The notes below the pieces were generated by a model. It was not told the origin of the DNA and did not search any database. It saw only the letters and a list, made by a program, of their open reading frames with translations. A stretch of 64,000 nucleotides of DNA. Source: Ignisphaera sp. (GTDB lineage: Archaea > Thermoproteota > Thermoprotei_A > Sulfolobales > Ignisphaeraceae). Positions 10,806 to 40,457 of the stretch are shown here, piece by piece. Both the position numbers and the translations under genes were made by a program. Every line of letters starts with the position of its first letter. Position 1 is the first letter of the stretch. The stretch lies in contig JAWAHS010000002.1 in NCBI GenBank assembly GCA_038889075.1, positions 172,930 through 236,929 of the forward strand, read 5' to 3'.

Positions 10806-11023
10806 CTATAGTTGTATTAGATGTATTAGATTTAGATTTAGAGAATATATTTAGCGGACCGACGTAACAGATGTAGCGTATTGCGCTCTCGCTCCTACTA
10901 AGGATGAAAACAGATGGATGTATAGCTCCACTGTTACTATATTTTCCTTTCCATTTGAAGGAAGATATCCTCAGCTATAAAGGATAAAGTTTAAAAATAG
11001 AAGGGTATATCTATTCACACTGG

Positions 11024-12040
11024 GTGATATCCATTACTAAAAAATTGATGAATAGACCTGAGGATATTGTTAGGGAAATGTTGGAGGGTATGGCACTCGC
11101 ATTTCCTGATATAATAAGATTGGATCCTCAGTGGAACAATGTTTATAGGAGGTATAGAAAACCTACTAACAAGGTTGCTCTCGTATGTGGCGGAGGAAGT
11201 GGACATGAACCAGCGCAAGCTGGCTATGTAGGTTATGGAATGCTTGATGCAGTTGCAGCTGGACATGTATTTACAGCACCTCCTGCACCACAGGTATTTG
11301 CAGCAATAAATGAGGTAGCTAATGATGCAGGGGTTTTGGTTATAGTTACGAACTATACTGGAGATGTTATGAATTTTGGTATTGCTATAAAGATGGCTAG
11401 TGCAAAGGGTATCAAAGTCGATTACATTATCGTGAACGACGACGTTGCTATTCAAGATCCACCTAGGAGGAGAGGAACAACCATCACTATTCTCATTAAT
11501 AAGATTGCAGGAGCGGCAGCTGAGGAAGGGAAAGATCTCGGTGAGGTTAAGAAGGTGGCGCAAAAAGTTCTTGATAATGGTAGGGATATAGGTGTAGCTT
11601 TAACACCATGTGTACTACCTACTACAGGAAAGCCGACATTCGAACTAGCATTAGATGAGATAGAGTTTGGTATAGGTGTACATGGAGAAGCGGGTGTAAG
11701 AAGGATAAAGTACATTCCATCGAAAGATTTAGCAAGAATGATGGTAGACGCCATAGTTGATGATCTAAAGTTGCAAAAAGGTGATGAATTAGCATTGGTT
11801 GTCCAGGGTACGGGTGGTACACCATATATGGAGAAGTTTGTATTTTATAGAGATGTGAGACTGTATGTCGAATCCCTAGGGTTTAAAGTATTTGCAAGTT
11901 GGGTTGGCGAGTTCTTCACTTCATTAGATATGCAGGGAGCGAGGGTGGCTATTTTAAGGCTTGATGAGGAATTGAAGAGGCTTCTCATGGCACCAGCATA
12001 TACAATTGCTATTAGAACTCCTGGTGTGGTTATATCGTAG
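11024..12040 (+). CDS. dhaK: dihydroxyacetone kinase subunit K
   Basis: GGGSGHEP, NYTGD, GVHGEAG, TSLDM. Confidence 0.92.
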   Translation: MISITKKLMNRPEDIVREMLEGMALAFPDIIRLDPQWNNVYRRYRKPTNKVALVCGGGSGHEPAQAGYVGYGMLDAVAAGHVFTAPPAPQVFAAINEVANDAGVLVIVTNYTGDVMNFGIAIKMASAKGIKVDYIIVNDDVAIQDPPRRRGTTITILINKIAGAAAEEGKDLGEVKKVAQKVLDNGRDIGVALTPCVLPTTGKPTFELALDEIEFGIGVHGEAGVRRIKYIPSKDLARMMVDAIVDDLKLQKGDELALVVQGTGGTPYMEKFVFYRDVRLYVESLGFKVFASWVGEFFTSLDMQGARVAILRLDEELKRLLMAPAYTIAIRTPGVVIS

Positions 12041-12056
12041 TATAAAAGGGGTTGGT

Positions 12057-12707
12057 ATGGATAGACTGAGCTCGAGAGATATCTATAGCATTATTCTACT
12101 GGCCAAGCGATACATAGCAGAGAATAGAGAAGAGCTTTCGCGACTCGACTCTGTAATTGGGGACGGAGATTTCGGTATCAATATAAATAGAGGGTTTGAA
12201 CTTGCTATAGAAAGGCTTAGTACAATAGATCCTGATAAAACAGATATTGGAACAATATTGATGACTGTTGCAAATGCATTGCTGGAGAGTGTTGGAGGAG
12301 CTTCAGGACCACTATTTGGTGGGCTGTTCATGAATATGGCCATGACCTCTTTAGGTAAATACGAAGTGGATTTGGCAACAATAGCCAACATGTTCAATGA
12401 TGGTCTTAAAGGGGTGCGAGAAATAGGAGGGGGGACAATGCCTGGCGATAAAACACTTATTGATTCGCTGTACCCAGCTGTAGAAGCATTACAGCAAGCA
12501 GTTAGGGAAAATAGAGATATTGTAGCAGCATTTAAGGATGCATTAATAGCTGCTGAAAGAGGTGCTAAGGCAACAGCAAATATGGTTGCAAAAAGAGGTA
12601 GAGCTAGCTATCTTGGTGTGAGAAGTATAGGTCATCAAGATCCAGGAGCTACGGCAATATATCTAATAATTAAAGCATTCCATGACTATACCTCAGGTAA
12701 ACGATGA
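12057..12707 (+). CDS. dhaL: dihydroxyacetone kinase subunit L
   Basis: GDGDFG, GGASGPL, GDKT..D, GRASY.G, DPGA; ATG 12057 after a G-rich SD. Confidence 0.92.
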   Translation: MDRLSSRDIYSIILLAKRYIAENREELSRLDSVIGDGDFGININRGFELAIERLSTIDPDKTDIGTILMTVANALLESVGGASGPLFGGLFMNMAMTSLGKYEVDLATIANMFNDGLKGVREIGGGTMPGDKTLIDSLYPAVEALQQAVRENRDIVAAFKDALIAAERGAKATANMVAKRGRASYLGVRSIGHQDPGATAIYLIIKAFHDYTSGKR

Positions 12708-12748
12708 AGCTCCTACCTAGATCATCTTATTTGCTTAAATTTCATCAC
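12693..12748 (-). ncRNA. candidate C/D-box sRNA
   Basis: GTGATGA (12748-12742) ... ATGA ... CTGA (12696-12693), 56 nt; the 10 nt before box D (CATCGTTTAC) are complementary to conserved 16S GUAAACGAUG; box C' is poor. Confidence 0.3.
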
Positions 12749-12976
12749 TAGAAGATATTGAATATAGATTCATCAAAATCAAAAACTTCACATTTATTGA
12801 TGAATGTTTAGCATCCTCTTCACATAAGCTTTCTCAGGAATTGTTTCAATCGTTATGTACATTGGTGCGCAGTGAGGCACCGTGAAGTTTCTAGCAATGA
12901 ATGCTAAGAGCTTTCACAATCTATCCAAAACCATACCACTGTGAAATAGATGATAAAGAGTTGGATGCAGACATGG

Positions 12977-14425
12977 TTATAGCAATAGCATCCTGTATTT
13001 GGTAATATTGTTGGTGAAGCCTAGTGCCTTAGAGAATCTGTGTATTAGATTGTATACTTCAGCTTCGTATTTCCTTCTAATATCCTCATCGCTGTAGTAC
13101 AGATTAATTAATTCATTTCTTAATCTCCTATAACCACTGCTATCTCTTATTGCTTGAAATAGATAGAAGTAGTGTCTAAATATGTCAGCTCTAGGACTCC
13201 TTTTATATAGGGGATCTTTATCTTTCTTCTCTTCGTACGCTTTTAAAAGTCTTTCAAGCTCCGGGGAATAGATACCGCTTTTGGTTTTTATTACAGAGTG
13301 TATGTGTTCAAGAACAGAGTCGTAGATTTCATCATAGATTCTTCTTGGCTTAGTTCCAGGTGCGGATTGGTGTAGGATTTCGAGTAGGAGCTGTATCAGC
13401 ACCCCAGACATTTTGTACTTTACGAAACCGCCTGTTGCCATTTTTATAACTTCCCATACTCCACTACCTTTATCAGAGTATGGATTAGCACCGCTACCGG
13501 AGTGTATGGAAATGTATATGCCCAGTGATGAGAGTACCGTATGCAGGTTTTTAACGTGTTCATAGAGTTGATTTACATCTTCAGTGTAATCCTCCCTCTT
13601 TCTAAATCCTATGTTTGGTGCTAGAAAATCTATATTGATACCTCTGTGTAATAATTCCATTGAATAGAATAGAACATCCTTTATACCGGTTTTTAATGGA
13701 AGTTCATCTAGTGCCACTTCTAGTCCAAACTCTCTTTCACTGTATTTCTTAATGATATTCAGTATCCTTTCAATGTATTCGATGCTTCTACTGTACTTCA
13801 ATGCAAGTTTAGCTACATCGATTTTGGTGAATTTAATGAATAGTATCCTATCGTCTGATACAAAGTTGAAATTTCGTAGGAATCTGTTCTCAAGCGATCT
13901 TCTGTAATCAGATTCAAACTGATTTTCATATCTATACAGAAGTTCTTCATTAGAAAGCATCTCAACTTTCGCGTCTACAAGTTCACAAGTGTCTATGGTT
14001 ACAAAATCTACGCCTCCTGCTCTAGCTACTTCTTTGAATTCCTCCTCAATATAGTTTAAAGATTCGTCTATCTCTGTTGTACTTAAACCCTCCTCTATGG
14101 CTACACCTGCTATTCTCTTTAAAGCTCTTTCAACACTACCCATAATAGATACATGGTCGGCTTCAATCTCTATAGGTATTGAAAATTCTTTGGAGAATTC
14201 TTCTGCTTTAGTTATATACTCACTGATCGAGGTACCTGTGTGTCCTAAATAGAAGTGTTTTGGATCTAGAGAGGCTATGAATCTCTGTGGTGCTGTTTCT
14301 CTATTAAATGAAAGCATTAGAGTTCCAGTAATGTTTAGTTCCTTAAAGCTTCTAAGTATGGCAGGTACAACTATTTCCGGGATTCTAATTCCAAAGGCAG
14401 GTCTAGGTATTTTACCTAAATACAT
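12977..14425 (-). CDS. uxaE: tagaturonate/fructuronate epimerase family protein
   Basis: EADH, VTID, EVALDE, LAP..GF.K..DY, SIHSGS, KMSG follow UxaE motif order; 482 aa. Confidence 0.75.
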   Translation of the reverse strand: MYLGKIPRPAFGIRIPEIVVPAILRSFKELNITGTLMLSFNRETAPQRFIASLDPKHFYLGHTGTSISEYITKAEEFSKEFSIPIEIEADHVSIMGSVERALKRIAGVAIEEGLSTTEIDESLNYIEEEFKEVARAGGVDFVTIDTCELVDAKVEMLSNEELLYRYENQFESDYRRSLENRFLRNFNFVSDDRILFIKFTKIDVAKLALKYSRSIEYIERILNIIKKYSEREFGLEVALDELPLKTGIKDVLFYSMELLHRGINIDFLAPNIGFRKREDYTEDVNQLYEHVKNLHTVLSSLGIYISIHSGSGANPYSDKGSGVWEVIKMATGGFVKYKMSGVLIQLLLEILHQSAPGTKPRRIYDEIYDSVLEHIHSVIKTKSGIYSPELERLLKAYEEKKDKDPLYKRSPRADIFRHYFYLFQAIRDSSGYRRLRNELINLYYSDEDIRRKYEAEVYNLIHRFSKALGFTNNITKYRMLLL

Positions 14426-14510
14426 TTATTGATACCCATAAGGGGTAAAATTCAGCAGCTAAAAACTTTTAAGTATTTTGAAATTTGGAGAGTATAGATG
14501 GGAGATAGCC

Positions 14511-15440
14511 ATGCTATATGGCTACACTGTCAGAAGAGGGCACGAAATTGTAGCAAGATTTCCATGGGATATAGGTATCGTTGCCTTTATGATATTTCCA
14601 GATTTGACACAATTAACTAAAGACTTTAGTGAGAGATTGAAACCCTTAATTGTAGACCCATTTTTCGATTTAATTGAAATGACACCCATAGTAGATGATG
14701 TAGAGTGGAATAAAGTCGCGAAACTAAATGAGGATTACGAAAAGAGATTTGCACTAGCACTTCAGCCACTTATAATAAATAGAGGTTTAAATGTTAATGC
14801 TCTAGATGAAGTGGAAAGAAGAAAAGCAGTTGAATTCATACTCAACGAGGTTCGTAGAGCAGGTTTGAGAGGAATGAAGGCTGTAGGTCTGTGCTCAGGA
14901 CCCAATGTGGAGGGTCCTAATAGGGAAGTAGCTATGGAAGCCCTTGTCAAAAGCCTTACTGAAATTGGAAGCGAGGCCTCTAAATATGGTATGAAGGTAT
15001 TCTTAGAGACGTTCGATATCATGTGGGATAGAAAAAGACTCGTTGGACCACTATCAGAGACGGTAAAGGTCGTAGAGAAGGTAAGGGAGGCTGTTAGAGA
15101 TGTTTACATAATGTGGGATCTAAGCCATGCTCCATTATTAAATGAGGAACCCGAGGTGCTGAAATCCTATCCAGAGTTCGTAGGCCATATACACATAGGA
15201 TGTGGAAAGAAAGTTGGTGATAAACTCCTAGATACACATCCAGGCTTCTATAGACCAGGAGCTCTCAATACAGAGGTGGATGTTGTAAGACTCCTCAGAG
15301 TGCTACACGATATTGGGTATAAGGGTGCTATCAGTTTTGAAATAAAACCAGAACAGGATCAGAATCCATTTGAAGCACTGAATGCTGGAAAGGGTGTTCT
15401 GCTAAGGGCATTTCAACTATATCTAGATTCAATACTCTAG
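14511..15440 (+). CDS. sugar phosphate isomerase/epimerase (AP endonuclease 2 TIM barrel)
   Basis: FLETFD, WDLSH, HIHIG, DTHP, SFEIK metal motifs; ATG 14511. Confidence 0.8.
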   Translation: MLYGYTVRRGHEIVARFPWDIGIVAFMIFPDLTQLTKDFSERLKPLIVDPFFDLIEMTPIVDDVEWNKVAKLNEDYEKRFALALQPLIINRGLNVNALDEVERRKAVEFILNEVRRAGLRGMKAVGLCSGPNVEGPNREVAMEALVKSLTEIGSEASKYGMKVFLETFDIMWDRKRLVGPLSETVKVVEKVREAVRDVYIMWDLSHAPLLNEEPEVLKSYPEFVGHIHIGCGKKVGDKLLDTHPGFYRPGALNTEVDVVRLLRVLHDIGYKGAISFEIKPEQDQNPFEALNAGKGVLLRAFQLYLDSIL

Positions 15441-15510
15441 CGAATCTGTATACAGTAACTTAGCCATAACGCTTTTAAACTAAATCTCTTTTTCTTTTTG
15501 GGGATGCATC

Positions 15511-16464
15511 TTGATAAATATAGTTACTTATAGAGAATTAAAAGATGTTGAAGCATTAGAATATTCTTGTAGAATACACAATGTAGCCTTTCCTTATGAT
15601 AGCGTAGAGTGCGATATATACAAATCATTCATAGTGGATGATGAAAACTTTAATGAAGAGTTCACACTATTTGCGATTGATAAAGAGAATAGAATTAGAG
15701 GATTCTTAATAGGTGTTGAAATATCCAAGGAGCCTAGGGATGCAGTGAACAATTTTAGAGAGTATATTTGGATAAAGGATCTAGCCATAGATATAGCGCT
15801 TCCTTCTGATGAGTGGAGGAAGGTTTTCATAGGGTTACTCTCATCATTCGAGGAAATGGTAAAAAGATATGGAAAGAAGCATATTGTCCTCTATGCTTAT
15901 GCACCGTACTATTTCATGCCAGGTATCAACATACTTTACGAAGATTATGTTGAGATGTTCGAAGTCTATGGATTTAAAAAACGTGAAGATTCTGTTAACT
16001 ATGAGGTGAATCTATCAGAATTCTATTACCCAGATAGAGTTAGAAAAATCGAAAATACGTTAGTGTCTGAGGGGATACTATTTAGAAAAGGAAGGAACGG
16101 AGAAGCGCCATATGTAAGTGAATGGGTTGGTAAAACGTTTAACAACCCGTTCTGGCGTTTAGAAACCGAGTACTCCTTCAGAAGCAAACCTCCGACTATA
16201 TGGATAGCAGAACAAGGTGGTGAGTTAATAGGATTCGCAGTATACCTCCGTATGAAACGAAATGAGTTTGGACCTGTAGGAGTGGATCCGAATAGAAGAA
16301 GACATGGTGTTGGTACGGTGTTGCTATTTAAAGCGTTATATGATTTAAAGCAGCTAGGATTTAAATACGCAGTTATACCATGGACATCGCACCTATTCTT
16401 CTATACGCAGGTACCGGGGATAGCTAGAATCAAACACTATTATATAATGACCAAAACTCTGTAG
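15511..16464 (+). CDS. tandem GNAT N-acetyltransferase
   Basis: FGPVGVDPNRRRHGVG acetyl-CoA motif A; YFMPG; two-domain length. Confidence 0.82.
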   Translation: MINIVTYRELKDVEALEYSCRIHNVAFPYDSVECDIYKSFIVDDENFNEEFTLFAIDKENRIRGFLIGVEISKEPRDAVNNFREYIWIKDLAIDIALPSDEWRKVFIGLLSSFEEMVKRYGKKHIVLYAYAPYYFMPGINILYEDYVEMFEVYGFKKREDSVNYEVNLSEFYYPDRVRKIENTLVSEGILFRKGRNGEAPYVSEWVGKTFNNPFWRLETEYSFRSKPPTIWIAEQGGELIGFAVYLRMKRNEFGPVGVDPNRRRHGVGTVLLFKALYDLKQLGFKYAVIPWTSHLFFYTQVPGIARIKHYYIMTKTL

Positions 16465-16522
16465 GTAAAATAGTGTAGACAGGTTTACAATCAGAAGTGC
16501 AGTTCCTTAGAGTAGAATGAAG

Positions 16523-17341
16523 TTAGAGCTCGTCTAGAATCTTTTTTATTATCCTAACCAACCCTGAATACGATTCCCTTGTTCCCTCCTCCTTGCTTCC
16601 AGATTGAGGTACGTAGTGTGTTTCCAGCGATAGAATAATGTCTCTATCTCTACTTATAACATCCCTTAACTGTCCCTCATAATCTATCATACCTTTGCCA
16701 ATGGGTTTAAATACAAATTTACCATTTTCTACCGATGCATCTTTTAGATGAAGGTAAAGTATCTGATCCTTGATTTTACTGTAGCCGTATGGATAGGGTG
16801 TTTCTCTAGCAAAGAATGCATTGCCGGGATCCCATAGCACCTTCACATATCTACTCTTTAATTTATCCAGAAGCATCCGAAGCTCTGTGCCTGTGCCGAT
16901 GAAGCACGAATATTCATTTTCAACTATTAAATGAACACCCTCTTCTTCGGCTAGTTCTATGGCAGGTTGAAATTTCTCTACTATTTTATCAATATACAGA
17001 TCTAGCGAACCCTGCCACCAGAATGTAAATATCCTTGTATACCCAAGGTCGAAGAATTTCGATATCTCGATTGCTCTCCTTAGTATAGATAGATGGTCCC
17101 TATACCCTCTTTCATCATCAATGTAAATCTTGAATGTAGGGGAACACACATGTGAAACCTTGATACCATATCTATCTACAAGTTTTCTCACATCACGGAG
17201 CTGACCATCAGAAAGCTCAACAATATATCTATTCCATAGTGTTCTAAGCTCAACATAGCTGGCTCCAAGCTCTTTAATAACCTTTAAAGCGTGTTCAAAA
17301 TCCTGTGAGATTTCATCAGATATTATTGATAGATTTGACAA
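16523..17341 (-). CDS. sugar phosphate isomerase/epimerase (TIM barrel)
   Basis: ISDEISQD, VENE, WDPGN, HLKD, SLETH; probable TTG start 17341 after GGGTG. Confidence 0.85.
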   Translation of the reverse strand: MSNLSIISDEISQDFEHALKVIKELGASYVELRTLWNRYIVELSDGQLRDVRKLVDRYGIKVSHVCSPTFKIYIDDERGYRDHLSILRRAIEISKFFDLGYTRIFTFWWQGSLDLYIDKIVEKFQPAIELAEEEGVHLIVENEYSCFIGTGTELRMLLDKLKSRYVKVLWDPGNAFFARETPYPYGYSKIKDQILYLHLKDASVENGKFVFKPIGKGMIDYEGQLRDVISRDRDIILSLETHYVPQSGSKEEGTRESYSGLVRIIKKILDEL

Positions 17342-17380
17342 GGGGTTGCACCCATATCGATACTCTGTAAACAGCTGTAT

Positions 17381-17397
17381 TAAAAATTTATATATTT
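17381..17397. promoter_or_regulatory. probable shared TATA element of divergent genes
   Basis: AAAAATTTATATATTT in the 84-bp gap between starts 17341(-) and 17426(+). Confidence 0.45.
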
Positions 17398-17425
17398 GAG
17401 TGATGGAATATAGCGGGGGTAGGCC

Positions 17426-18496
17426 ATGCCCCATAGGATAGGTGTAGCCGTAGTTGGTCTCGGTGCTATTGGACGTGTTCACGTTGAAGCCATTAAAGAT
17501 CTTGAGAGGTCCACGGATTACGTGAAACTTGTTGGTGTTACCTGTTTAAATCGGTCTCTTATCGATGGATTTGCATCTAGATATGGATGCAAAGGGTACT
17601 ACTCATATGACGATGTTGTTAGGGATCCAGAGGTGGATGTTGTAACAATAGCAACTCCCCATTATCTGCATGCATGGCAGGCTATGTATGCTATGGAATT
17701 TGGTAAGCATGTTATTGTAGAGAAACCTATTGCAACAACAGTAACAGCTGCAAAGGAGATGATATTAAAGGCTAGGCGTAAAGGAATTAAGCTAGGCGTA
17801 ATCTATCAGGGGAGGTATGCTGATGGTGTGAGGGAGCTTAAGAAACATCTAGATGGTGAGTCAATTGGTAAACCACTGCTGGTCATAGGTGAGATGATGT
17901 GGTTTAGAGATGAAGCGACGTATTATCTAAAGGATGAACTTGCTAGAAGTTGGAGAGGTATGTGGTCGACAGAAGGTGGAGGGGCATTAATAAATCAGGC
18001 AATACACACGATAGATTTAATGTTATGGTTTGGAGGCGAGGTTGATGAGGTAGTCGGATATATTGACAACCTTGTACACCAATCTATAGATGTTGAGGAT
18101 ATCGGTATAGGGTTGATGAAGTATAGAAGGGGAGGATACGGTGTTCTCACTGCAAATCTCTTTACAAAACCATCTACATATCAGTATAGAAAGATAAGGG
18201 TATTTGGTACAAAGGGGCAAGCTGAACTATGGGATAACGAGTTGGTTCTACTAAAGAGTGAAGAAGGTCTATCAATAGAGAGAAGTCCTGGATATTCAAC
18301 TGAAACAATAAAGGTTCCAGGTGGACTACATAGGAGATTGTTTGAGGACTTCTTTATGGCACTACTTAACGACAGAGACTTTCCAATAACAGGTGAGGAA
18401 GGGTTAAAGAGCCTTGAGATAGTTAGAGCCATATACTATTCAAGTACAAGAAAAGTGCACGTAAAACTTCCATTAGAGGTTGATGGTATTCTATGA
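17426..18496 (+). CDS. Gfo/Idh/MocA family oxidoreductase
   Basis: GLGAIG, ATPHYLH, VEKP, WRG.W..EGGG.L.NQAIH..D. Confidence 0.92.
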   Translation: MPHRIGVAVVGLGAIGRVHVEAIKDLERSTDYVKLVGVTCLNRSLIDGFASRYGCKGYYSYDDVVRDPEVDVVTIATPHYLHAWQAMYAMEFGKHVIVEKPIATTVTAAKEMILKARRKGIKLGVIYQGRYADGVRELKKHLDGESIGKPLLVIGEMMWFRDEATYYLKDELARSWRGMWSTEGGGALINQAIHTIDLMLWFGGEVDEVVGYIDNLVHQSIDVEDIGIGLMKYRRGGYGVLTANLFTKPSTYQYRKIRVFGTKGQAELWDNELVLLKSEEGLSIERSPGYSTETIKVPGGLHRRLFEDFFMALLNDRDFPITGEEGLKSLEIVRAIYYSSTRKVHVKLPLEVDGIL

Positions 18497-19290: not shown

Positions 19291-19404
19291 ATTTACTTAA
19301 TTTTGCTTACCCTTTAACCAGTTTTCCAGTACGGCTATAGATAAGTTTTTAAAGAGAGGTCACGGACTTCTTTCTCTAGCCTCAGGATGTGGTGAAATAA
19401 CTTT

Positions 19405-21546
19405 ATGAAGATATCAAAAGAAAATGTAATCGATATTCTAAAAAGAGCTAAGGTAGACGCTCTCTCATTACCAATGGAACCACGCATAGATCATGCTGAT
19501 CATATAATCAAAACGTCGTTAATGGGATGGACGAAACTCGCAGCTGATCATATTTTACATCCAGAAATGGGTAGTTGTTTGATAGATGTTGTAGGTTCCC
19601 TTATTAGGAGAATAGGTCTACTTATTAGAAGTGAAAGAATAGATGATGGATCAAGTGCCGAGGAAGGGATAGTTCGAAGAGCAAGACTATATGATACTAT
19701 GTTTGAGATGGTATTCAATTTGGTTGGTGCTGAAAGTAGATGGGCAGGCTTTGCCTCAGAAATGGTTGAGCAGGTTGTGACGACCATCAAAAACGCATTT
19801 GATGAATGGGAGGATATTGAAAGAAGAGAGCTTGGTGAACCGATAGTTATTGAGGCCGTCATCGAACTTCAGCTCAGAGAGTTGATGAAGGTTAATAAAG
19901 GTAGGAGCCTTGTTGCAGAGATTGCACAAAGAGTTTCAAAGAAGGTATCGAAGTTAGGGTGTGCAAGAAGCTATATAGAGGCTATGATATATGAAATCAG
20001 AAATAACTTCTATAGAAAGGCATACGATTTAAACCTTTGCAAGTTTGGTAACGATTACGCACTTGGCTTGCGATTCTTGAGACATCTAGGATTTGTTCAA
20101 GTTTCGACAAATCCTGTATTAGCGGCTAGAGCCTACGATGATGATTCTGAGCTATGGAGTAGGTTTAGGAAATATGCAGAGGAAATTCTCGTGAAGGAGC
20201 ATCCAGAATGGTTTAGAGAGCCTGAGAGATACGCTGACGATATAACCATGGAGGCAACCAGGTTTGCACTACTAGATAATTTCTACGTATTTAGGATACC
20301 ATTTATACTATCAAAGTATCATGATGGTCTGGTGAGCTATCAATTAAATCCACTGATTGCACATGACGTTGAGAAGAGTGTGGAAGCTGTAAAAATATTT
20401 GCCACTAGATTGGAGAAAGATCTAGCAATATACGATGAATATCTCTGGTGGGGTTATAGTGTTCCTGAGAAGGGAAGACCGGATCTTGTTATAAAGGTAG
20501 CAGCAGCATATCCTGCAGCAATTGAAATTGCCGAGAGGATAAACGAAATGGGTGTAGGTCAGAATATTACGGTAAGCTACACTGTTAGTCAGGAGGTTCT
20601 GATAGGTGTTGCTGCTATGAAGGGTATGGCAAAGGCTATAAAGAAAGGAATTATGCCGACCCAAACCTACGATACAAACATGGGTGGTAGATTGGAGGAT
20701 CACCTTAGGGAAGATATAGCTGCCAGACTTCTTCTAAAGGGGTTGGAGAAGGTAGAGGAGCATAGAAGGTGGGCTGTATTAGATAAATTAGCAAAAGGTC
20801 TAGGAGTAAAGGAGGATGTATGGGGTGAGGTGAAGAGAAAAGGTCTGAAGAGTGCTGTAGATCACCTATGTAGTCATAGGGTACTGGGCAGGAATATGGT
20901 AAGAGATCCATATATAGATGCGCTGGTGGAGCTGAATATCTATGGTACTAGAGAGGAGACGTTGAAAAATGTTAAGATGCTTGAAGAGGCTATAGAGCTT
21001 TCGGGAACCTTTGTAGCCCAGAGAGTATATGAGATACTATTCTCACCTTGGAATCGTGAAAAGTGGATAAACTACCTCATCAATGAAGTGGGTATTACCA
21101 GGGAACAGGCTGAAATAGTAATTGATAGAATAGATCTCCTTCCAGCATCTAAGAGAAAGCCTATCGACACCCTCTATACATTTGCTTCTAGGAATATGAC
21201 AAATACTGAGTTCCCCGATCACCAACTAAAGGTTGTAAATGAGGTTGCGGAGAAAGGTATAGAGCTCGATGAAATTAGGGAGTCTATATACCAGACCCTG
21301 GAGAATCGATACCTAGAGATATTGATGCAGTATGAGGATTTTGTAAAAGCATACGAATCTTCTCCTGAGCTAAATGACCTCCTTAAGAAAGTTGGCATAG
21401 ATAAAGACTATGGGAATAGAGGTGTAAGTCCTGCTGATTGGCCAAGGTACGGACCGTGTGTAAAGACTATGAATGAATTCACTAATGAGTACCTAGCATT
21501 TAGATCAAAGGTTGTAGAACTTATAAAAACTATATCATCTCCATAA
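19405..21546 (+). CDS. large transaldolase/fructose-6-phosphate aldolase family protein with ~200-aa N-terminal extension
   Basis: GND, STNP, VSYQLNP, VIKVA (Schiff-base Lys), NIT, GGRLED, ASKR in TAL/FSA order. Confidence 0.8.
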   Translation: MKISKENVIDILKRAKVDALSLPMEPRIDHADHIIKTSLMGWTKLAADHILHPEMGSCLIDVVGSLIRRIGLLIRSERIDDGSSAEEGIVRRARLYDTMFEMVFNLVGAESRWAGFASEMVEQVVTTIKNAFDEWEDIERRELGEPIVIEAVIELQLRELMKVNKGRSLVAEIAQRVSKKVSKLGCARSYIEAMIYEIRNNFYRKAYDLNLCKFGNDYALGLRFLRHLGFVQVSTNPVLAARAYDDDSELWSRFRKYAEEILVKEHPEWFREPERYADDITMEATRFALLDNFYVFRIPFILSKYHDGLVSYQLNPLIAHDVEKSVEAVKIFATRLEKDLAIYDEYLWWGYSVPEKGRPDLVIKVAAAYPAAIEIAERINEMGVGQNITVSYTVSQEVLIGVAAMKGMAKAIKKGIMPTQTYDTNMGGRLEDHLREDIAARLLLKGLEKVEEHRRWAVLDKLAKGLGVKEDVWGEVKRKGLKSAVDHLCSHRVLGRNMVRDPYIDALVELNIYGTREETLKNVKMLEEAIELSGTFVAQRVYEILFSPWNREKWINYLINEVGITREQAEIVIDRIDLLPASKRKPIDTLYTFASRNMTNTEFPDHQLKVVNEVAEKGIELDEIRESIYQTLENRYLEILMQYEDFVKAYESSPELNDLLKKVGIDKDYGNRGVSPADWPRYGPCVKTMNEFTNEYLAFRSKVVELIKTISSP

Positions 21547-21592
21547 CCAGCTTTACAACAATTAACTTAGTATTGTTTGGTGGTCTACCCCC

Positions 21593-22876
21593 TTGTCCAA
21601 GTTGTATAGTGAGTTATTTGGGGAAATAAAGGATATACCAGTTATCGATGTACATCAACATCTGAACCCATTATCACTCTCGGCTAAGAGTATTGATGAT
21701 ATTGTGTTCTACCACTATATAGTAACAGAACTTGCATCCTCTGGTATGTCTAGAGAGCTTCTCGAAAGGTATAGAGGGGTTGAGAGGTTAAAGGTAGCAG
21801 CAAACTACATCAAGTACATAAGGAATACCTCTACCTTCTGGTGCTTAAAGTCTATACTCAGAGATCTCTATGGTTTCGAACTAAGAGGTTTAGAGCCAAG
21901 TAATGTAGAGGAGCTGGTTACCGCAGTTAGTCAGAAATTTAGCGATGAGACATGGGCTAAGCACATCTTAAGGGATAGAGTTCCCGTAGAAAAGTCGTTT
22001 CTAACAATAAATCCACTTGAAAGGATGGTACAATATGACAGGGAGCTGTTTACAGGAGCTCTAAGAATGGATCCAATACTACCTAACTTGACCCAGTCTG
22101 GTTTAAGGCATTTAGAGGGGATATTATCGCTAGAGATAGTAAATTCCAGTATACTTGAAGAGGCGATTATAGCCATCCTTAAGAGATTTATAGGAAGTAT
22201 TGTGGCTGTTACAATAAATGTTCAGCCAGACGACGAATTCATCTCTCTAGCTACTAGTAGAAGCGATAAATCTACTGTAGATACTTACCTGAGTGTCTTA
22301 AGATCACAAGGTATACTAGATCCTCTAGCTAGAAGTACCATTGCATCATATATTCTTAGAATCGTACTTGGATTCTGTGAAGAACAGAAGTTAGCTGTTC
22401 AATTGATGCTAGGTGTAAAGAGACCTGTAGCAGGTGCCTCACCACCAGATTATGCTATAACTCTATTCAATCCCCGTCAGATTATTGATCTAGCGAAACT
22501 CTTTTCAGCATATCCAGCCGTAAAATTCGATGTATTTATAGCAGATGCTTTGATGAATCATCCAATGACAGTTATAGCCAAGAACTACCCCAACGTTTAT
22601 CTAAGTGGATACTGGTGGTACTCTATGTATCCAGAATTGATTAGATCATACCTCCGTTTAAGACTTCAGATGCTACCATATAATAAAATAGGCGGATTCT
22701 TTAGCGATGCATATATAGCAGACTGGGTCTATGGAAAGGCAGTGCTAGCCAAGAGTCAGTTAGCACATATATTGACAAACTTTATTGAAGAGGGATTCAT
22801 AGACAAGGAAACAGCACTTGAGATAGCAAGAGCACTTCTAAATGAAAATGCAAAGTCTCTATACAACCTGATATAG
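21593..22876 (+). CDS. uxaC: uronate isomerase-like amidohydrolase
   Basis: IDVHQH metal motif, YHY, GYWWY, FFSDA; upstream of beta-glucuronidase. Confidence 0.62.
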   Translation: MSKLYSELFGEIKDIPVIDVHQHLNPLSLSAKSIDDIVFYHYIVTELASSGMSRELLERYRGVERLKVAANYIKYIRNTSTFWCLKSILRDLYGFELRGLEPSNVEELVTAVSQKFSDETWAKHILRDRVPVEKSFLTINPLERMVQYDRELFTGALRMDPILPNLTQSGLRHLEGILSLEIVNSSILEEAIIAILKRFIGSIVAVTINVQPDDEFISLATSRSDKSTVDTYLSVLRSQGILDPLARSTIASYILRIVLGFCEEQKLAVQLMLGVKRPVAGASPPDYAITLFNPRQIIDLAKLFSAYPAVKFDVFIADALMNHPMTVIAKNYPNVYLSGYWWYSMYPELIRSYLRLRLQMLPYNKIGGFFSDAYIADWVYGKAVLAKSQLAHILTNFIEEGFIDKETALEIARALLNENAKSLYNLI

Positions 22877-22960
22877 CATTTTTAAGATTCTTAAAAGGAT
22901 TGTCTATTAGGGCAAACCTTATATATCTAATCCCTCTTCTATAGCATGCTGTGAACAGAG

Positions 22961-24700
22961 TTGAAATCGTGGTTCAGACCTAGAATACCTCTCGATGGTT
23001 TTTGGAAATTCAAAATGGATAGGGAACTGGTTGGCGATAGAGAGGAGTGGTATAGAGGGTTTAGCTCAGCTGATCTCATATATGTTCCATCATCTTGGAA
23101 TGAACAAAATCCAGAATGGGATCAATTCACTGGTGTGGCTTGGTATCAGAGGGATTTCTATGTCGATGGTTCTCTAAAAGGTAAGCTAGCATGGATTATC
23201 TTCGATGGTGCTGGATACAGGGCTAGGGTATGGGTGAACGGCAATTTCATAGGGGAACACGAGGGGTCATTTACACAGTTTAGATTTGGTGTTGGCAGCA
23301 TCAAATATGGTGATTTAAATAGAATTGTTGTTAGGATAGACAATACACCATCGGTATCCGACTTACCTCCAGCAAGGGAGCTTAATGTAACAGCTTTTGA
23401 CTTCTTTCACTATGGGGGTATCCATAGACCTACATACTTAGAGTTTACAGATACGTGCTATGTTGACGACGTCACCATAAATGCGGGTGGCGATGGAAGC
23501 TTTAAGACATCCATTGATATAGTATGCAACAGACGTGTTGATGTAAAGCTTGCTTTAATGGATAAGGAGTTGTCAGAGGTATTGTTTGAGGAGATGATAA
23601 GAGATGTTGAACCTGGTCAATTCAGATATGAGAGGAGATTCGATGGTGTCAGGCCGTGGAGTCCTGAAGATCCGAATCTATATAACTTTGTTGTTGAGAT
23701 CTATACAGATGGTGTTATGAGGGACTCGGTTTATGAACGTATAGGGTTTAGAACTATTGAAGTTAGAGGGGGGAAGATATATTTAAATGGACGACCAGTA
23801 TTCCTCAAGGGGTTTGGCAGACATGAAGATTTCCCAGTACTGGGTAAGTACATGCATGGTGCAGTTCTCATAAGAGACTTCTACCTAATGAAGAAAATAG
23901 GTGCCAATTCCTTTAGAACCACACACTATCCATATTCAAATGAACATCTAGATCTAGCTGACGAATTTGGCTTTATGGTGATTCTAGAGCCCCCGCTATG
24001 CTACTCAGGTATGGATCGTATACTTAGTAGAGAGGAGATAGCGAAACTCTTTAGTAGTGAGGAATACTTCACGAAGGCAAGAAGATTTGTTGAGGAGATG
24101 GTGAAGCAACATAAGAATAGACCATCAGTAATAATGTATAGTGTAACAAACGAACCGCCAAGCGATATACCAGAGGTAGCAGAATTTATAAAAAGAATGG
24201 CTCATCTCTTTAAAGAGCTGGATCCTTCAAGGCCAACAACATTTGCCTCTCATAGATCCATCAGAGATCTCGCCCTAGGTCATGTAGATGTGATATCGCT
24301 TAACTATTATCGTGGCTGGTACTCCGAATGGGGTGATATAGCAAGGGGTACTGAAGTTATGCTAAAAGAGGTAGAGCAAATCCATCAGAGATTTCCAGAA
24401 AAACCGATAATTATAACAGAATTTGGAGCAGATGCCTATCTAGGACTACACAGCGATCCACCACAGATGTGGTCAGAGGAATACCAGGCAGAAATGATTA
24501 GAAGCTATGTTGAGGTGCTGAGTAAGAGGGATTATGTAGTAGGGTTACATATATGGAATTTCGCAGACTTTAGAACCCCGCAGAATCCACTAAGAACAAT
24601 ATTGAATAGAAAAGGAATCTACAGCAGAGATAGACAGCCAAAGCTATCAGCATTAATATTATCAAAACTATTTAAAAATATACCCACATTCATAGAATAG
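22961..24700 (+). CDS. uidA: beta-glucuronidase (GH2)
   Basis: DFFHYGGIHR, GFGRHED, NSFRTTHYP, NEP and TEFG catalytic Glu, WNFADF, NRKG (N-K motif). Confidence 0.9.
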   Translation: MKSWFRPRIPLDGFWKFKMDRELVGDREEWYRGFSSADLIYVPSSWNEQNPEWDQFTGVAWYQRDFYVDGSLKGKLAWIIFDGAGYRARVWVNGNFIGEHEGSFTQFRFGVGSIKYGDLNRIVVRIDNTPSVSDLPPARELNVTAFDFFHYGGIHRPTYLEFTDTCYVDDVTINAGGDGSFKTSIDIVCNRRVDVKLALMDKELSEVLFEEMIRDVEPGQFRYERRFDGVRPWSPEDPNLYNFVVEIYTDGVMRDSVYERIGFRTIEVRGGKIYLNGRPVFLKGFGRHEDFPVLGKYMHGAVLIRDFYLMKKIGANSFRTTHYPYSNEHLDLADEFGFMVILEPPLCYSGMDRILSREEIAKLFSSEEYFTKARRFVEEMVKQHKNRPSVIMYSVTNEPPSDIPEVAEFIKRMAHLFKELDPSRPTTFASHRSIRDLALGHVDVISLNYYRGWYSEWGDIARGTEVMLKEVEQIHQRFPEKPIIITEFGADAYLGLHSDPPQMWSEEYQAEMIRSYVEVLSKRDYVVGLHIWNFADFRTPQNPLRTILNRKGIYSRDRQPKLSALILSKLFKNIPTFIE

Positions 24701-24822
24701 TTTTCTTTAACATAATAATCTCTGTAATACTATTACGCAGCATATCATCATAATAGTGCTAGAGACCGACTAAGACCATAAAGATTTATATAGCTGTTCT
24801 TTCCGTTACCATACTGGAATGG

Positions 24823-27234
24823 GTGCTGCAGATGATATTAGGTAGAACCCTCGCCTCTATACTTATAGCTACAATTATAATTTTATCACTTCTATCAACA
24901 GTCACCATACAGAATCTAAATGCACAGCTTGCGTTGCCACCAGGCGTTAAAAGAGAGGAAACCGTTATCTTCGATGTTCAGATAAGTAGCGTTGCCAATC
25001 CAGATAACTGGAATCCCTGGGTTATAGGCACACAGGCTACAGTTATAGGTATTAACCAAGTCTGTATGTCACCACTCTACTACACTGACTACAAGGATGG
25101 TGTGACAAAGCCGTGGGTTGCAGAAAGCCTACCCACCTACAGCCCTGACTTTAAGGAGCTAACAATAAAGATTGTAAAAGGCATATACTGGAGTGATGGA
25201 ACACCATTTACAGCCAGGGATATCGTGTATGCTATAAATGTCTCTAAAGCAAATAGTAAGCTAAGTCCATATGCAACCCTAAATGCATGGGTGGAGTCTG
25301 CATGGGTTGTAGACGACTATACGCTTACCATAAGGCTCAAAACTCCAAATCCATACTTCCACTACATGGCCTTTACCTTGATAGGCCCCGGCATATACAA
25401 CTACATGATGCCGAAACACTACTTTGATGCCAACGGTATTACCGCAGAAAATGCGCACACATTTCTCTACAACCCACCGCTGTGTATAGGACCATATGTA
25501 CTCCACTCATACGACCCTGGCGGTACGTGGTTCCTGTGGAAGAGAAGGGATGACTGGGACAGGTCCTCAATTAAGCCACTCTACGATAAAAAGATTGTTC
25601 TATGGCCTGGCCCCAAGTATGTTATGTTTAGAGTGTTTAAGACCGAGACGGATAAGATTGTAGCAATGGCTAGAGGAGAACTCGATTGGATTTTTGATGC
25701 CACTTGGCAGGCATGGGAGTCTCTAAAGAGGATGCTTGGTGATAGGGTGCAGGCATGGTTACCGTATTATCCATATTTCTGGGGCTATGATACAACAGTT
25801 AGAGGTATATACTTTAACAATATGAGGTATCCATATAACATAACTATGGTTAGATGGGCACTCACACTAGCCATAAACATGACGGAGGTTATGACAATAG
25901 GGTATAAGGGTGTGCAGAGAATGACTGTAGTACCGAGTGCTGCTGCATGGCCAGCGGAGGCATTCCTAACATACACACTTTTACTAGACGATCTACTCAA
26001 CATGGAGCTAACACTACCAAATGGATCAAAGATTAAGGTTTACGATCCATCACATCCAATTAGAGTATATCAATGGGCTAGAGCCACAGGTCTACTAACA
26101 AAGGACTTAACGGAATCTGAAATTAGGTGGAACTGGGGTGCTGGATGGTGGAGATACGCACCAGATGCAGCAGAACAGATATTAAGAAGTCTGGGATTCT
26201 CTAGAGGACCAGACAAAAAATGGAGGCTTCCAGATGGAACACCATGGAAAATGAAGTTAAATATACCTGCAGGTTTCGAATTTGATGCCATAGATCTAGG
26301 TCTAGCTGTTGCAGAACAGTGGAGGAAATTTGGAATAGATGTAGAGGTAATACCACTAGAGGCAGCAACATTCTGGACTCCTCAATTAAACTATGGAGCA
26401 TTTGAAGTAGGTTCATACTGGGGTACAAGTGGAAATGATCCTAATGCAATACCAATACACCTCGAAGGATGGAGATGCGCCTACGTAAAGCCCATAGGGG
26501 AGTATTCACCAAATGGTGCGAGATACTGTAATCCAAAGTTTGATGAAGCACTACTAAAAGCTATGACCAATCCACCAGGAACCCCTGAAATGATAAATTC
26601 TCTGAAGGAGGCTATACTAACAATGATTAAAGATATGCCAGTTGCATGGGCTGGAAACTGTAAAAAGCTACTACCGGTCCTAACAGACTACTGGACCAAC
26701 TGGCCATCAGCCTACAACTTCTATACAGGTATCAAACTATGGGGTAATCAAATGGCACAGCAGGTAATAGGCAACCTAATACCAGTTAAATCAACTATAG
26801 ATACTCCAACAAGTAGACCTATAAATGAACCACCACCAGGCACGATAACATTCCCAGCACTTCCAGAAGAAGCGATGAAGAAACTAGCAGCAGCCTTGGT
26901 AAAGCCTACCCCTACCCCGACTCCAACGCCAACACCTACACCATCTCCTACTCCTAGGCCAACCCCGACACCTACCCCAACACCTACCCCAACCCCAACA
27001 CCTACCCCAACACCTACTCCTTCGCCTACTCCTGTGCCTGGTGCTGTAACAGTTACCGTTACTAGAACAGAAACAGCAACAGTAACATCAACAGCAGTAG
27101 TAACATCAACAGCAGTATCAACAACAACAGCAACAAAAACAGAGACAGTAACAGAATGGACAACAACAACAGCACTAGCAATAGCACTACTAATAATAGG
27201 AATAGCAATAGGATGGTTCATAAAAAGAAAATAG
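24823..27234 (+). CDS. ABC transporter substrate-binding protein (family 5, likely oligosaccharide) with PT linker and C-terminal membrane anchor
   Basis: Signal peptide, WSDGTPFTARD, GPY, VRWAL..AIN; PT/T-rich stalk, TM helix + KRK. Confidence 0.9.
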   Translation: MLQMILGRTLASILIATIIILSLLSTVTIQNLNAQLALPPGVKREETVIFDVQISSVANPDNWNPWVIGTQATVIGINQVCMSPLYYTDYKDGVTKPWVAESLPTYSPDFKELTIKIVKGIYWSDGTPFTARDIVYAINVSKANSKLSPYATLNAWVESAWVVDDYTLTIRLKTPNPYFHYMAFTLIGPGIYNYMMPKHYFDANGITAENAHTFLYNPPLCIGPYVLHSYDPGGTWFLWKRRDDWDRSSIKPLYDKKIVLWPGPKYVMFRVFKTETDKIVAMARGELDWIFDATWQAWESLKRMLGDRVQAWLPYYPYFWGYDTTVRGIYFNNMRYPYNITMVRWALTLAINMTEVMTIGYKGVQRMTVVPSAAAWPAEAFLTYTLLLDDLLNMELTLPNGSKIKVYDPSHPIRVYQWARATGLLTKDLTESEIRWNWGAGWWRYAPDAAEQILRSLGFSRGPDKKWRLPDGTPWKMKLNIPAGFEFDAIDLGLAVAEQWRKFGIDVEVIPLEAATFWTPQLNYGAFEVGSYWGTSGNDPNAIPIHLEGWRCAYVKPIGEYSPNGARYCNPKFDEALLKAMTNPPGTPEMINSLKEAILTMIKDMPVAWAGNCKKLLPVLTDYWTNWPSAYNFYTGIKLWGNQMAQQVIGNLIPVKSTIDTPTSRPINEPPPGTITFPALPEEAMKKLAAALVKPTPTPTPTPTPTPSPTPRPTPTPTPTPTPTPTPTPTPTPSPTPVPGAVTVTVTRTETATVTSTAVVTSTAVSTTTATKTETVTEWTTTTALAIALLIIGIAIGWFIKRK
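26905..27180 (+). repeat. Pro-Thr low-complexity repeat and Thr-rich stalk within the binding protein
   Basis: (PT)n from CCTACCCCAACA-type units; GTAACATCAACAGCAGTA twice in tandem. Confidence 0.9.
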
Positions 27235-27284
27235 AATAAAAAGAAATTTTTTTAAATTTCAAACTACTACTTTTTATTCATTAG

Positions 27285-28211: not shown

Positions 28212-28699
28212 CTAATCCTAAGTTACCTTGGTTAAAAATAGAGGATTACAGAAAATACATCATTTACTGATCCATAGTTATGGTTATCTAATTCCACATT
28301 AGATTATGCTAATCTAGACAGGGTTTTCCTTTACTATTAAATATTCCAATCTCATTTTAGGTTTAGTACCACAGGTTCTACTACGACTTGAAGGTAGTAG
28401 TCGAGAATAAGACAGTAATACAGATTTATTTAAGATTAGCTTAGGGTATTTGCCGACGAACTCCTATAGATTATGTAATCAAATACATTATACCAGCTTT
28501 CCTTTAAATACTGTTAGGGATAATGGTATCGGTTTAGATTGTTGAAACGGTATTTATATTATGTTAATAAATTTACGAAGCGTTGTAGAAGTATTCTATG
28601 CTAAGTACAATGTATAATAGTATATACCAGAATTAGTGTTTTTAAATAGAGTCATAAAGCAGAAAATTTATACGTAGGTTTCAAATCTACCTAAGTTAG

Positions 28700-40451: not shown

Positions 40452-40457
40452 ATTTCA

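Follow-up and report, generated by a model that had tools for sequence, protein, structure and literature searches.

How does an archaeon dispose of fructuronate and tagaturonate when the enzymes that would lead them to 2-keto-3-deoxygluconate (KDG) are missing? The question is raised by a stretch of 64,000 nucleotides from Ignisphaera sp. (GenBank assembly GCA_038889075.1, contig JAWAHS010000002.1, positions 172,930 to 236,929; G000:C2:172930-236929 in our numbering), which we call the window. In it, a gene for a 713-aa protein of the transaldolase/fructose-6-phosphate aldolase (TAL/FSA) family, here named TAL713, stands among genes for TIM-barrel proteins of the PF01261 family (TIM1, TIM2 and TIM3), a ketose epimerase similar to UxaE, a uronate-isomerase-like protein and a beta-glucuronidase-like glycosidase. 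To our knowledge, hexuronate and inositol breakdown as described so far passes entirely through KDG or malonic semialdehyde.

A preliminary description of the window had proposed aldol cleavage of fructuronate in place of the KDG route. The missing KDG enzymes, the co-occurrence of the genes and the adjacency of the glyoxylate/hydroxypyruvate reductase GyaR lend this proposal the support of comparative genomics, short of biochemistry. We put the probability that TAL713 would cleave D-fructuronate at C3-C4, with the resulting tartronate semialdehyde going to glycerate, at about 0.55.

A genome without the KDG route and with a probable inositol operon

The source assembly comprises 1.95 Mb in 25 contigs and is 99.58% complete. 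It belongs to an Ignisphaera-like crenarchaeon, and the closest homologs were from metagenome-assembled genomes of Ignisphaera. Open reading frames (ORFs) were taken from the window and assigned to families with Pfam and NCBIfam models with curated cut-offs, and six-frame family searches were run on the whole genome, with control genomes that gave matches each time. In this 99.58%-complete genome no UxuA (PF03786) was found, and the whole genome likewise gave no Mannitol_dh protein (PF01232, the UxuB/UxaB family), no UxaA-type dehydratase (PF04295), no Eda-type aldolase for 2-keto-3-deoxy-6-phosphogluconate (KDPG; PF01081) and no match to canonical UxaC (PF02614). The earlier remark that uxuA, uxuB, uxaA and KDPG aldolase are not recognisable in the window thus extends to the genome as a whole. 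Two candidates for a sugar-acid dehydratase were rejected: the single match to the enolase superfamily was enolase itself, and the sole IlvD/Edd protein was genuine IlvD (820 bits), encoded next to citramalate synthase. Three proteins of the DHDPS family were present, all far below the cut-off for archaeal KD(P)G aldolase (best 108 bits against 390). Because the enzymes of the KDG route were not found, fructuronate and tagaturonate are left without an outlet by known enzymes in this organism.

The entry into such a pathway is familiar. The Isomerase (Ashwell) pathway, UxaC-UxuB-UxuA-KdgK-KdgA, begins in the same way, with a uronate isomerase and interconversion by UxaE, in the relevant passages of PMC6353982; its reductase, dehydratase and KDPG aldolase, however, were not found in the present genome. 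In the portions of PMC6353982 and PMC3750489 that concern it, UxaE connects tagaturonate with fructuronate, and UxuB and UxuA then lead to KDG.

About 80 kb upstream of the window, a probable inositol operon is encoded on one strand (G000:C2:80178-92423; locus L085:178-12423). It contains a binding protein, two permeases, two ATPases, GyaR, an IolG-like protein, IolM, IolN and an IolO-like protein. GyaR (594 bits) and IolM (500.9 against 450) scored above their cut-offs, whereas IolN (243.7 against 245), the IolG-like protein (324.7 against 355) and the IolO-like protein (194.3 against 300) scored below them. Genes of these Iol types, here and in many loci with TAL713, correspond to the inositol pathway of Thermotoga maritima (TM0411-TM0416; IolG, IolM, IolN, IolO), which ends at D-tagaturonate in the part of PMC5931981 that deals with it. 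GyaR is the first catabolic gene of the L085 operon, and a glyoxylate/hydroxypyruvate reductase in that place has no substrate in the Thermotoga scheme. The archaeal operons differ from that of Thermotoga in that GyaR, a TIM1-type barrel and TAL713 are added, while the downstream UxuB and UxuA of Thermotoga are missing.

The entry steps would fall to two proteins. The 427-aa product of the gene that follows TAL713 reached 37 bits with the glucuronate-isomerase model NF002794, far under its cut-off of 387; its relatives in the PDB were 4i6v (E=2e-39), the Bacillus halodurans uronate isomerase BH0493 (3.5e-12) and Thermotoga 1j5s (6e-9), and many of its homologs carry PF02614 or bear the source name glucuronate isomerase. 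Judged by sequence, it appears to be a divergent relative within the branch of amidohydrolases that holds the uronate isomerases. The UxaE-like protein matched PDB 9kcs, labelled merely "ISOMERASE", with E=6.8e-115 and the characterised Cohnella UxaE (6ilb) with 2.6e-7. A tagatose 4-epimerase of the UxaE-like family from Thermoprotei is reported in the pertinent section of a review (PMC12042125).

TAL713 and the predicted cleavage of D-fructuronate

TAL713 matched PF00923 (TAL_FSA) with 33.2 bits (cut-off 27) over residues 223-400 only, corresponding to model positions 13-148 of 285, and residues 201-452 alone gave 36.1 bits. An alignment was built from the window protein and 35 of 120 listed homologs chosen to span 44-86% identity (36 sequences), and a wider one by adding 13 distant representatives and 5 further loci. 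A profile of the 36 homologs matched the PDB transaldolase 3r5e with E=4e-4. K364, in the motif LVIKVAA, was aligned on the strand that carries the Schiff-base lysine in the PDB transaldolases 3r5e and 3clm and in a short TAL/FSA protein of the same genome; all 36 sequences share it, and its conservation was 90% or higher in the wider alignment. Q313 (SYQLNP) was aligned opposite the catalytic Glu of the SLEVSP motif in the 3clm-type transaldolase, and this Gln was at least 90% conserved, so that TAL713 has Gln in place of the catalytic Glu of classical transaldolase (EC 2.2.1.2). D217, N236 (QVSTNP), Q313, K364, N387/T389 and R429 were invariant or nearly so in the 36-sequence alignment, and D217, N236, Q313, K364, T389 and R429 were at least 90% conserved in the 36- and 19-sequence alignments. 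Mean column identity was 0.77 over residues 205-440, compared with 0.55 in the N-terminal 204 residues and 0.57 in residues 441-575.

The protein is also large for its family. Its full-length relatives have 650-775 aa, as against the single-domain size of classical transaldolase (~220-390 residues), and TAL713 is about three times as long as FSA, with some 200 N-terminal residues and a middle stretch of some 135 residues that lack a known family. The N-terminal 210 and C-terminal 274 residues gave no credible Pfam match. TNMGGR (424-429) and PASKR (580-584) resemble, by eye and with no program alignment, the PF.GR and AS.R motifs of the short TAL of the genome, which suggests that the barrel may continue after a large insertion; the profile comparison of TAL713 with the short TAL aligned the lysine strand alone. 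Matches in the ESM Atlas were limited to clusters named "TAL_FSA domain-containing" and "xylose isomerase TIM barrel". Judged by these features, TAL713 is a remote, enlarged member of the TAL/FSA superfamily in which the Schiff-base lysine is kept.

The short protein just mentioned, of 222 aa, is encoded on contig C5 (G000:C5:73374-73991; L086:1474-2142, minus strand) and scored 153.7 bits, below the FSA equivalog cut-off of 245.95. Since an ordinary short TAL/FSA gene is thus present, TAL713 is not the housekeeping enzyme. The short protein contains HVQV and, by eye, may likewise have Gln at the Glu position. In two other genomes, the match to TAL713 contained one in-frame TAA (G082:C1:802588-804663, in a complete single-contig genome, and G112:C4:45862-47892, in a metagenome-assembled genome, MAG), which may mean that the gene is split or has become a pseudogene, or that the sequence is in error there.

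In the mechanism that we propose, TAL713 would be a class-I (lysine Schiff-base) aldolase recruited to split D-fructuronate between C3 and C4. The substrate would be supplied by two routes. In one, glucuronides would be taken up by way of the binding protein, hydrolysed by the GH2 enzyme, anomerised by the mutarotase-like protein and isomerised to fructuronate by the 427-aa protein; in the other, myo-inositol would be converted to D-tagaturonate via IolG-IolM-IolN-IolO and then to D-fructuronate by the UxaE-like epimerase. Cleavage would yield tartronate semialdehyde and a dihydroxyacetone unit, which may be freed and phosphorylated by DhaKL or moved to glyceraldehyde 3-phosphate to form fructose 6-phosphate. 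Tartronate semialdehyde would be turned into hydroxypyruvate, either by a TIM1-type barrel or spontaneously at high temperature, and hydroxypyruvate would be reduced to D-glycerate by GyaR and then phosphorylated by glycerate 2-kinase.

D-Fructuronate is fructose 6-phosphate with a carboxylate replacing the CH2OPO3 group, and TAL/FSA enzymes require the D-fructose configuration at C3 and C4. When the stereochemistry was worked out here from the named intermediates, the epimerisations by IolO (at C3) and UxaE (at C4) were seen to turn a D-sorbose-like keto-acid into the D-fructose-like configuration. FSA, which likewise has Gln where transaldolase has Glu, sets dihydroxyacetone free. E. coli FSA and the short TAL/FSA proteins belong to the same superfamily as TAL713, with a Schiff-base lysine, and the presence of DhaKL near TAL713 would fit free dihydroxyacetone. 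DhaKL, rare in the phylum (3/201 genomes), sits 7 kb upstream of TAL713 in this window; because of this position and the FSA-like Gln, release of free dihydroxyacetone would be favoured in this organism.

On the side of the acid product, E. coli Hyi, GarR/GlxR and glycerate kinase carry tartronate semialdehyde and hydroxypyruvate to D-glycerate and on to phosphoglycerate. Unlike this glyoxylate/glucarate module, the present set has a reductase of the GyaR type, a 2-hydroxyacid dehydrogenase, rather than of the GarR type, its kinase is the archaeal MOFRL 2-kinase, and the accompanying TIM1 barrel is not demonstrably Hyi-like.

By analogy, the proposed route would be the carboxylate counterpart of sulfo-TAL sulfoglycolysis. 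In the sections of PMC9594981 devoted to that pathway, a PF00923 enzyme splits sulfofructose, the glycerone unit passes to glyceraldehyde 3-phosphate and the C3 aldehyde is then reduced; the cluster given there for sulfo-TAL (SqvA, Firmicutes) holds a glycosidase, a mutarotase, an isomerase, a transaldolase and a reductase, and the window presents the same sequence of gene types. The likeness is one of logic only, as the enzymes are not orthologs, and GyaR lies elsewhere in this genome, though it is adjacent to TAL713 in 12 other loci. SqvA is a close homolog of pentose-phosphate transaldolase, again according to that part of PMC9594981, whereas TAL713, a protein of 713 aa, is a remote family member (33 bits) in which Gln stands where the catalytic Glu would be. 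Its anion would be a carboxylate and not a sulfonate, and the C3 product would be fully assimilable.

A full-text search, which misses most subscription journals, returned no paper on a fructuronate or tagaturonate aldolase or transaldolase, or on a hexuronate aldolase. Titles and abstracts, with most subscription journals again missing, gave no relevant paper joining fructuronate with transaldolase or tartronate semialdehyde, or tartronate semialdehyde with inositol in archaea. On 5-keto-L-gluconate, an aldolase and inositol together, the one paper found, within the same limits, deals with L-glucose in Luteolibacter; according to its abstract, that pathway runs via altronate and KDG. The chances are about even that TAL713 founds a new class, a D-fructuronate aldolase/transaldolase; joined by GyaR and an isomerase of the TIM1 type, it would make up a trunk pathway that does without KDG, is widespread among Thermoproteota, among Bathyarchaeia and in some bacteria, and funnels myo-inositol and hexuronates into glycerate plus triose or hexose phosphate. 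If this is true, it would close a gap in a phylum where fructuronate/tagaturonate reductases are nearly absent (2/201 genomes) and yet complete inositol-to-tagaturonate operons and uronate-isomerase-like genes are common. It would also give a function to several hundred proteins now called "hypothetical" or "transaldolase family", change the reconstructions of carbon flow for hot-spring and sediment archaea, and make available a thermostable catalyst to form C-C bonds in carboxylated sugars. The source of the inositol may, by conjecture, be di-myo-inositol phosphate and inositol lipids.

Neighbours and co-occurrence of TAL713 across genomes

A pattern scan of one genome per species gave 206 confirmed relatives of TAL713, and the best 80 loci were kept; they came from Thermoproteota, Bathyarchaeia, Brockarchaeota, Hadarchaeota and a few bacteria. 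Neighbours were sought within 10 kb around TAL713 among ORFs of at least 90 aa, with overlapped ORFs removed, which were clustered by BLASTP (E<1e-12, at least 60% coverage) and named by Pfam and NCBIfam. In 36 of the 80 loci less than 5 kb was available on one side, and fragments at contig ends may be missed. Co-occurrence was counted in a sample of 201 genomes, namely the source genome (G000) and 200 others spread evenly over the phylum, none of them less than 80% complete (Table 1). Three genomes with TAL713 in this sample are complete (G082, G090, G149).

Table 1. Genes found near TAL713 in the 80 loci, and their distribution in the 201 genomes of the phylum sample
Gene or family	Loci (of 80)	Genomes (of 201)	Of these, with TAL713	Scores and remarks
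TAL713		33		11/40 families
PF01261 TIM barrel, any type	37
TIM1-type barrel	21	22	18	Genomes: E<=1e-30
UxaE-like	26	20	18	Exceptions G110 (82% complete) and G189
GFO/IolG-like	26
GyaR	24, 12 of them directly adjacent	65	28	NF009714, 506 bits, cut-off 455; genomes: E<=1e-125
IolM, scyllo-inosose 3-dehydrogenase	19	15	14	546 bits, cut-off 450; genomes: above cut-off
IolN hydrolase	16			234 bits, cut-off 245
Glycerate kinase	7
Uronate-isomerase-like	7	25	20	Genomes: strong orthologs, E<1e-80
GH2	4
dhaK (Dak1)	1	3	1 (G000 only)	Loci: tblastn
Mannitol_dh		2	2
UxuA		15	7, one borderline	Genomes: above cut-off

Of the 44 loci flanked by 5 kb or more on each side, 31 held one or more of IolM, IolN, UxaE, GyaR, the isomerase-like gene and glycerate kinase. 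Typical gene orders were as follows: TIM1, IolO, IolN, IolG, UxaE, IolM, TAL713, GyaR in L024; IolG, IolM, IolN, TIM, TAL713, UxaE, GyaR in L066; TIM1, UxaE, isomerase-like, TAL713, GyaR in the Ignisphaera-like loci L010-L013; and IolM, TAL713, GyaR in four Bathyarchaeia loci. The bacterial loci included an Aerophobetes set of IolN, UxaE and TAL713 (L063) and a deltaproteobacterial one of UxaE, TAL713 and TIM (L080). TAL713 and UxaE abutted or overlapped (gap -59 to +5 bases) in 5 loci of five lineages, two of them bacterial, in either order. A fusion of the two proteins was not found, as no ORF of the 80 loci matched both and none of the representatives of 133 clusters had a length of about 1200 aa, which does not prove that fusions are absent. 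The strongest conserved link of TAL713 is with Thermotoga-type inositol catabolism and UxaE and not with the glucuronidase (4/80 loci), and glucuronide use is a lineage-specific feeder.

A gene for a glycerophosphodiester phosphodiesterase (GDPD) was also present near TAL713 in 8 of the 80 loci (L020, L029-L031, L038, L043, L050, L054); the enzyme may release inositol from glycerophosphoinositol or similar compounds.

The preliminary description had named co-occurrence across genomes as a check on its proposal, and such co-occurrence was observed with uxaE (TAL713 in 18 of 20 carriers) as well as with the isomerase-like gene (20 of 25 carriers of a strong ortholog). UxaE occurred in 9 of 40 families, and TAL713 was found in all nine. 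Either UxaE or the isomerase-like gene was present in 27 of the 33 TAL713 genomes, and the UxaE-less carriers of genus g25 had the isomerase-like gene in 7/7 cases. Mannitol_dh was missing in 31 and UxuA in 26 of the 33, and where IolM and TAL713 occurred together (14 genomes), no clear UxuA was present. GyaR was present in 28/33 carriers of TAL713 as against 37/168 non-carriers.

The acid predicted as C3 product fits the commonest adjacent neighbour, which is GyaR. The TIM1-type barrel stood directly next to GyaR in 9 genomes of 6 families. TAL713, TIM1 and GyaR are linked in pairs, as direct neighbours in one lineage or another, which would agree with a route in which the aldehyde left by the cleavage is isomerised to a ketone, reduced to D-glycerate and handed to glycerate 2-kinase. 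Two parts of the earlier proposal fared less well here. The barrel that travels with TAL713, considered there as a possible Hyi-type isomerase, resembles ketose 3-epimerases more than Hyi: the nearest PDB entries to the TIM1 profile were D-tagatose 3-epimerase (1.9e-9), MJ1311 and TM0416/IolO (3.5e-8), the score with TIGR03234 was 36.7 bits against a cut-off of 353, and identification of TIM1 as Hyi is not supported by sequence. DhaKL, put forward there as the kinase of dihydroxyacetone, was rejected as a general partner, with Dak1 in 3/201 genomes and in 1/33 carriers of TAL713. No EIIA-man (DhaM) domain was found in the genome, though DhaK and DhaL are separate subunits. Glycerol kinase was above its cut-off in 4 of 5 TAL713 carriers checked and may or may not take dihydroxyacetone.

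Several observations weigh against cleavage of fructuronate by TAL713. UxaE was missing in 15/33 carriers and 6/33 had neither UxaE nor a strong isomerase-like ortholog, while UxuA was over its cut-off in 7/33, one of them borderline. No marker neighbour was found in 7 of the 44 well-flanked loci, and one clade (L036-L042, L052) had URO-D-like, PhoPQ-related and class II aldolase genes near TAL713 and no iol genes. GyaR is widespread, including the 37/168 non-carriers, and DhaK was missing in 32/33 carriers. The solved structures closest to TIM1 were ketose 3-epimerases and TM0416, with the Hyi-like YgbM (1k77) at E=0.1; because of these relatives TIM1 may be another epimerase, so that its role, a tartronate semialdehyde/hydroxypyruvate isomerase or a further 3-epimerase, is weakly founded. 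Met426 (TNMGGR) takes, in an alignment made by eye only, the position of what we take to be a Phe in transaldolase and a catalytic Tyr in FSA. As the helper residues Q313 and Met426 differ from both models, the activity of TAL713 is not readable from its sequence. The counts themselves are descriptive, and the co-occurrence evidence is overstated because related genomes are not independent.

Much of this evidence bears on whether TAL713 could be an aldolase or transaldolase acting on another keto-sugar, such as D-tagaturonate, 5-keto-L-gluconate, a phosphorylated keto-acid or a neutral ketose from the GFO/TIM enzymes, which we regard as unlikely. The altered helper residues leave the specificity open, PfkB kinases lay within 10 kb of TAL713 in 6/80 loci, and the absence of UxaE from 15/33 carriers and of iol genes from the clade with URO-D-like, PhoPQ-related and class II aldolase neighbours point the same way; in that clade the substrate may be different. 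All 7 UxaE-less carriers of genus g25, however, have the isomerase-like gene, which would give fructuronate directly, and cleavage of tagaturonate or 5-keto-L-gluconate would leave UxaE without a purpose, whereas UxaE is in fact the partner most tightly linked to TAL713, abutting or overlapping it in 5 loci. The specificity of TAL/FSA enzymes for the fructose configuration at C3 and C4 is a further argument for fructuronate.

Less probable still is a route toward KDG built from a non-orthologous reductase, dehydratase, kinase and aldolase that escaped recognition, with TAL713 as an accessory. Candidate enzymes would be a reductase of GFO or SDR type, the two PfkB kinases (at 41754 and 42914) and any of the three aldolases of the DHDPS family, and the part of PMC3750489 on galacturonate lists extra genes in Thermotoga (uxaD, gntE, gntK); but no candidate dehydratase was found, with UxuA and UxaA absent and the enolase-superfamily and IlvD/Edd matches accounted for by enolase and IlvD, and the best DHDPS protein reached only 108 of the 390 bits of the archaeal KD(P)G-aldolase cut-off. 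Such a route accounts neither for GyaR in the iol operon nor for the co-occurrence of TAL713. TAL713 might, in a third alternative, be a sugar-phosphate transaldolase (fructose 6-phosphate/sedoheptulose 7-phosphate) that carries added regulatory or scaffolding domains and lies near sugar-acid genes for no other reason than to balance pentose-phosphate intermediates. Compatible with this are the match to PF00923, the conserved lysine and R429, whose position is presumably that of a phosphate-binding Arg. We consider this alternative the most improbable of the three: a short TAL/FSA gene is already in the genome, the transaldolase catalytic Glu is replaced in TAL713, and the family is patchy (33/201), with a distribution that follows UxaE, IolM and the isomerase-like gene and not central metabolism.

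As to the exceptional clade, seven of its loci (L036, L037, L039-L042 and L052, from MAGs labelled Nitrososphaerota or Brockarchaeota) share URO-D-like, PhoPQ-related, TAL713, TIM, URO-D-like, glycerate kinase and class II aldolase genes together with a 721-aa glycosidase-like gene.

Remaining genes of the window and a hint of expression

Every gene named in the preliminary description was recovered at its position from ORFs, Pfam and NCBIfam (Table 2), and two more were recognised in the region, the GNAT-domain gene and the mutarotase-like gene. The run of TAL-family, isomerase-like, GH2 and binding-protein genes described as co-directional indeed lies within a co-directional run (17426-28211) with intergenic gaps of -4 to 122 bases, and the glycerate 2-kinase, placed some 17 kb further on, starts 16,979 bases past 27234. 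The gene order of the window was repeated in three related loci (L005-L007) at about 86% identity, and because of this recurrence the arrangement is beyond chance.

Table 2. Genes of the window discussed in the text, with coordinates, strand and supporting matches
Gene or product	Coordinates	Strand	Match
dhaK	11024-12040	+	Dak1, 376 bits
dhaL	12006-12707	+	Dak2, 173 bits; DhaL model TIGR02365 above cut-off
UxaE-like ketose C4-epimerase; proposed tagaturonate/fructuronate interconversion	12977-14425	-	PF16257, 87.8 bits, cut-off 27.1
TIM1-type PF01261 barrel	14478-15440	+	Pfam
GNAT-domain protein	15511-16464	+	PF00583, 41 bits
TIM2, PF01261 barrel	16523-17482	-	109 bits
GFO/IDH/MocA oxidoreductase	17426-18496	+	Pfam
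TIM3, PF01261 barrel, 4-base overlap with GFO gene	18493-19290	+	126 bits
TAL713, 713-aa TAL/FSA-family protein; proposed D-fructuronate (trans)aldolase	19405-21546	+	PF00923 TAL_FSA
427-aa uronate-isomerase-like amidohydrolase, divergent; would convert glucuronate to fructuronate	21593-22876	+	No Pfam match; NF002794, 37 bits
GH2 glycosidase, beta-glucuronidase-like	22961-24700	+	GH2 domains; NF007538, 446.9 bits, cut-off 544
803-aa family-5 solute-binding protein (SBP_bac_5)	24823-27234	+	PF00496, 153.5 bits
Mutarotase-like protein (TTE1925 family, distant)	27285-28211	+	NF052227, 229.9 bits, cut-off 550; no Pfam match
Glycerate 2-kinase (MOFRL type)	44213-45559	+	DUF4147 + MOFRL; glycerate 2-kinase models 287 bits, under cut-offs

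The expectation that most of the unexplained genes would gain a role from fructuronate cleavage was borne out in part; it failed for TIM2, TIM3, the GFO oxidoreductase and the GNAT protein, which are limited to close relatives (L005-L007). TIM2 gave no PDB match at E<=0.01 and was found in 4/80 loci by tblastn, the TIM3 type made up 5 of the 50 TIM ORFs of the loci, and the GNAT-domain gene was present in 10/80. The GFO oxidoreductase scored 123 bits with the IolG model TIGR04380, where the IolG-like gene outside the window reached 325 bits, and is not the IolG ortholog; its PDB relatives include 3q2k (2.7e-41) and the glucuronide-3-dehydrogenase 8tdi (2e-21). With TIM3 overlapping it and TIM2 divergent beside it (16523-19290), it might belong to an oxidative system for cleavage of glycosides or glucuronides and not to the aldolase route.

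A second ORF of 427 aa (45592-46875, minus strand) adjoins the glycerate kinase gene and had no sequence match in Pfam, NCBIfam or the PDB; the idea that it is a paralog of the isomerase-like protein was rejected, as there is no likeness between them. A scan for promoters and terminators of bacterial type, unsuited to an archaeon, gave counts no higher than shuffled controls.

In the metatranscriptome run X16, contigs 95-99% identical to the window covered 29 of 30 bins of 11000-30000. One contig lay over TAL713 (19414-20742), and another ran from TAL713 across into the isomerase-like gene (20812-22321). These contigs hint only weakly at expression of the locus in a nearly identical strain, for DNA may be present in an RNA library, and a transcript is not proven by contigs. 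The sister RNA runs X23 and X24 placed no contig on the stretch, which is no evidence of absence. The X16 contig over the gene for the 803-aa binding protein had a depth of 527, against 17-42 for the other listed contigs. No permease genes adjoin this gene; two genes for Opp-type ATPases lie at 39483-41456 on the opposite strand, and a repeat is found inside the binding-protein gene at 27104-27215.

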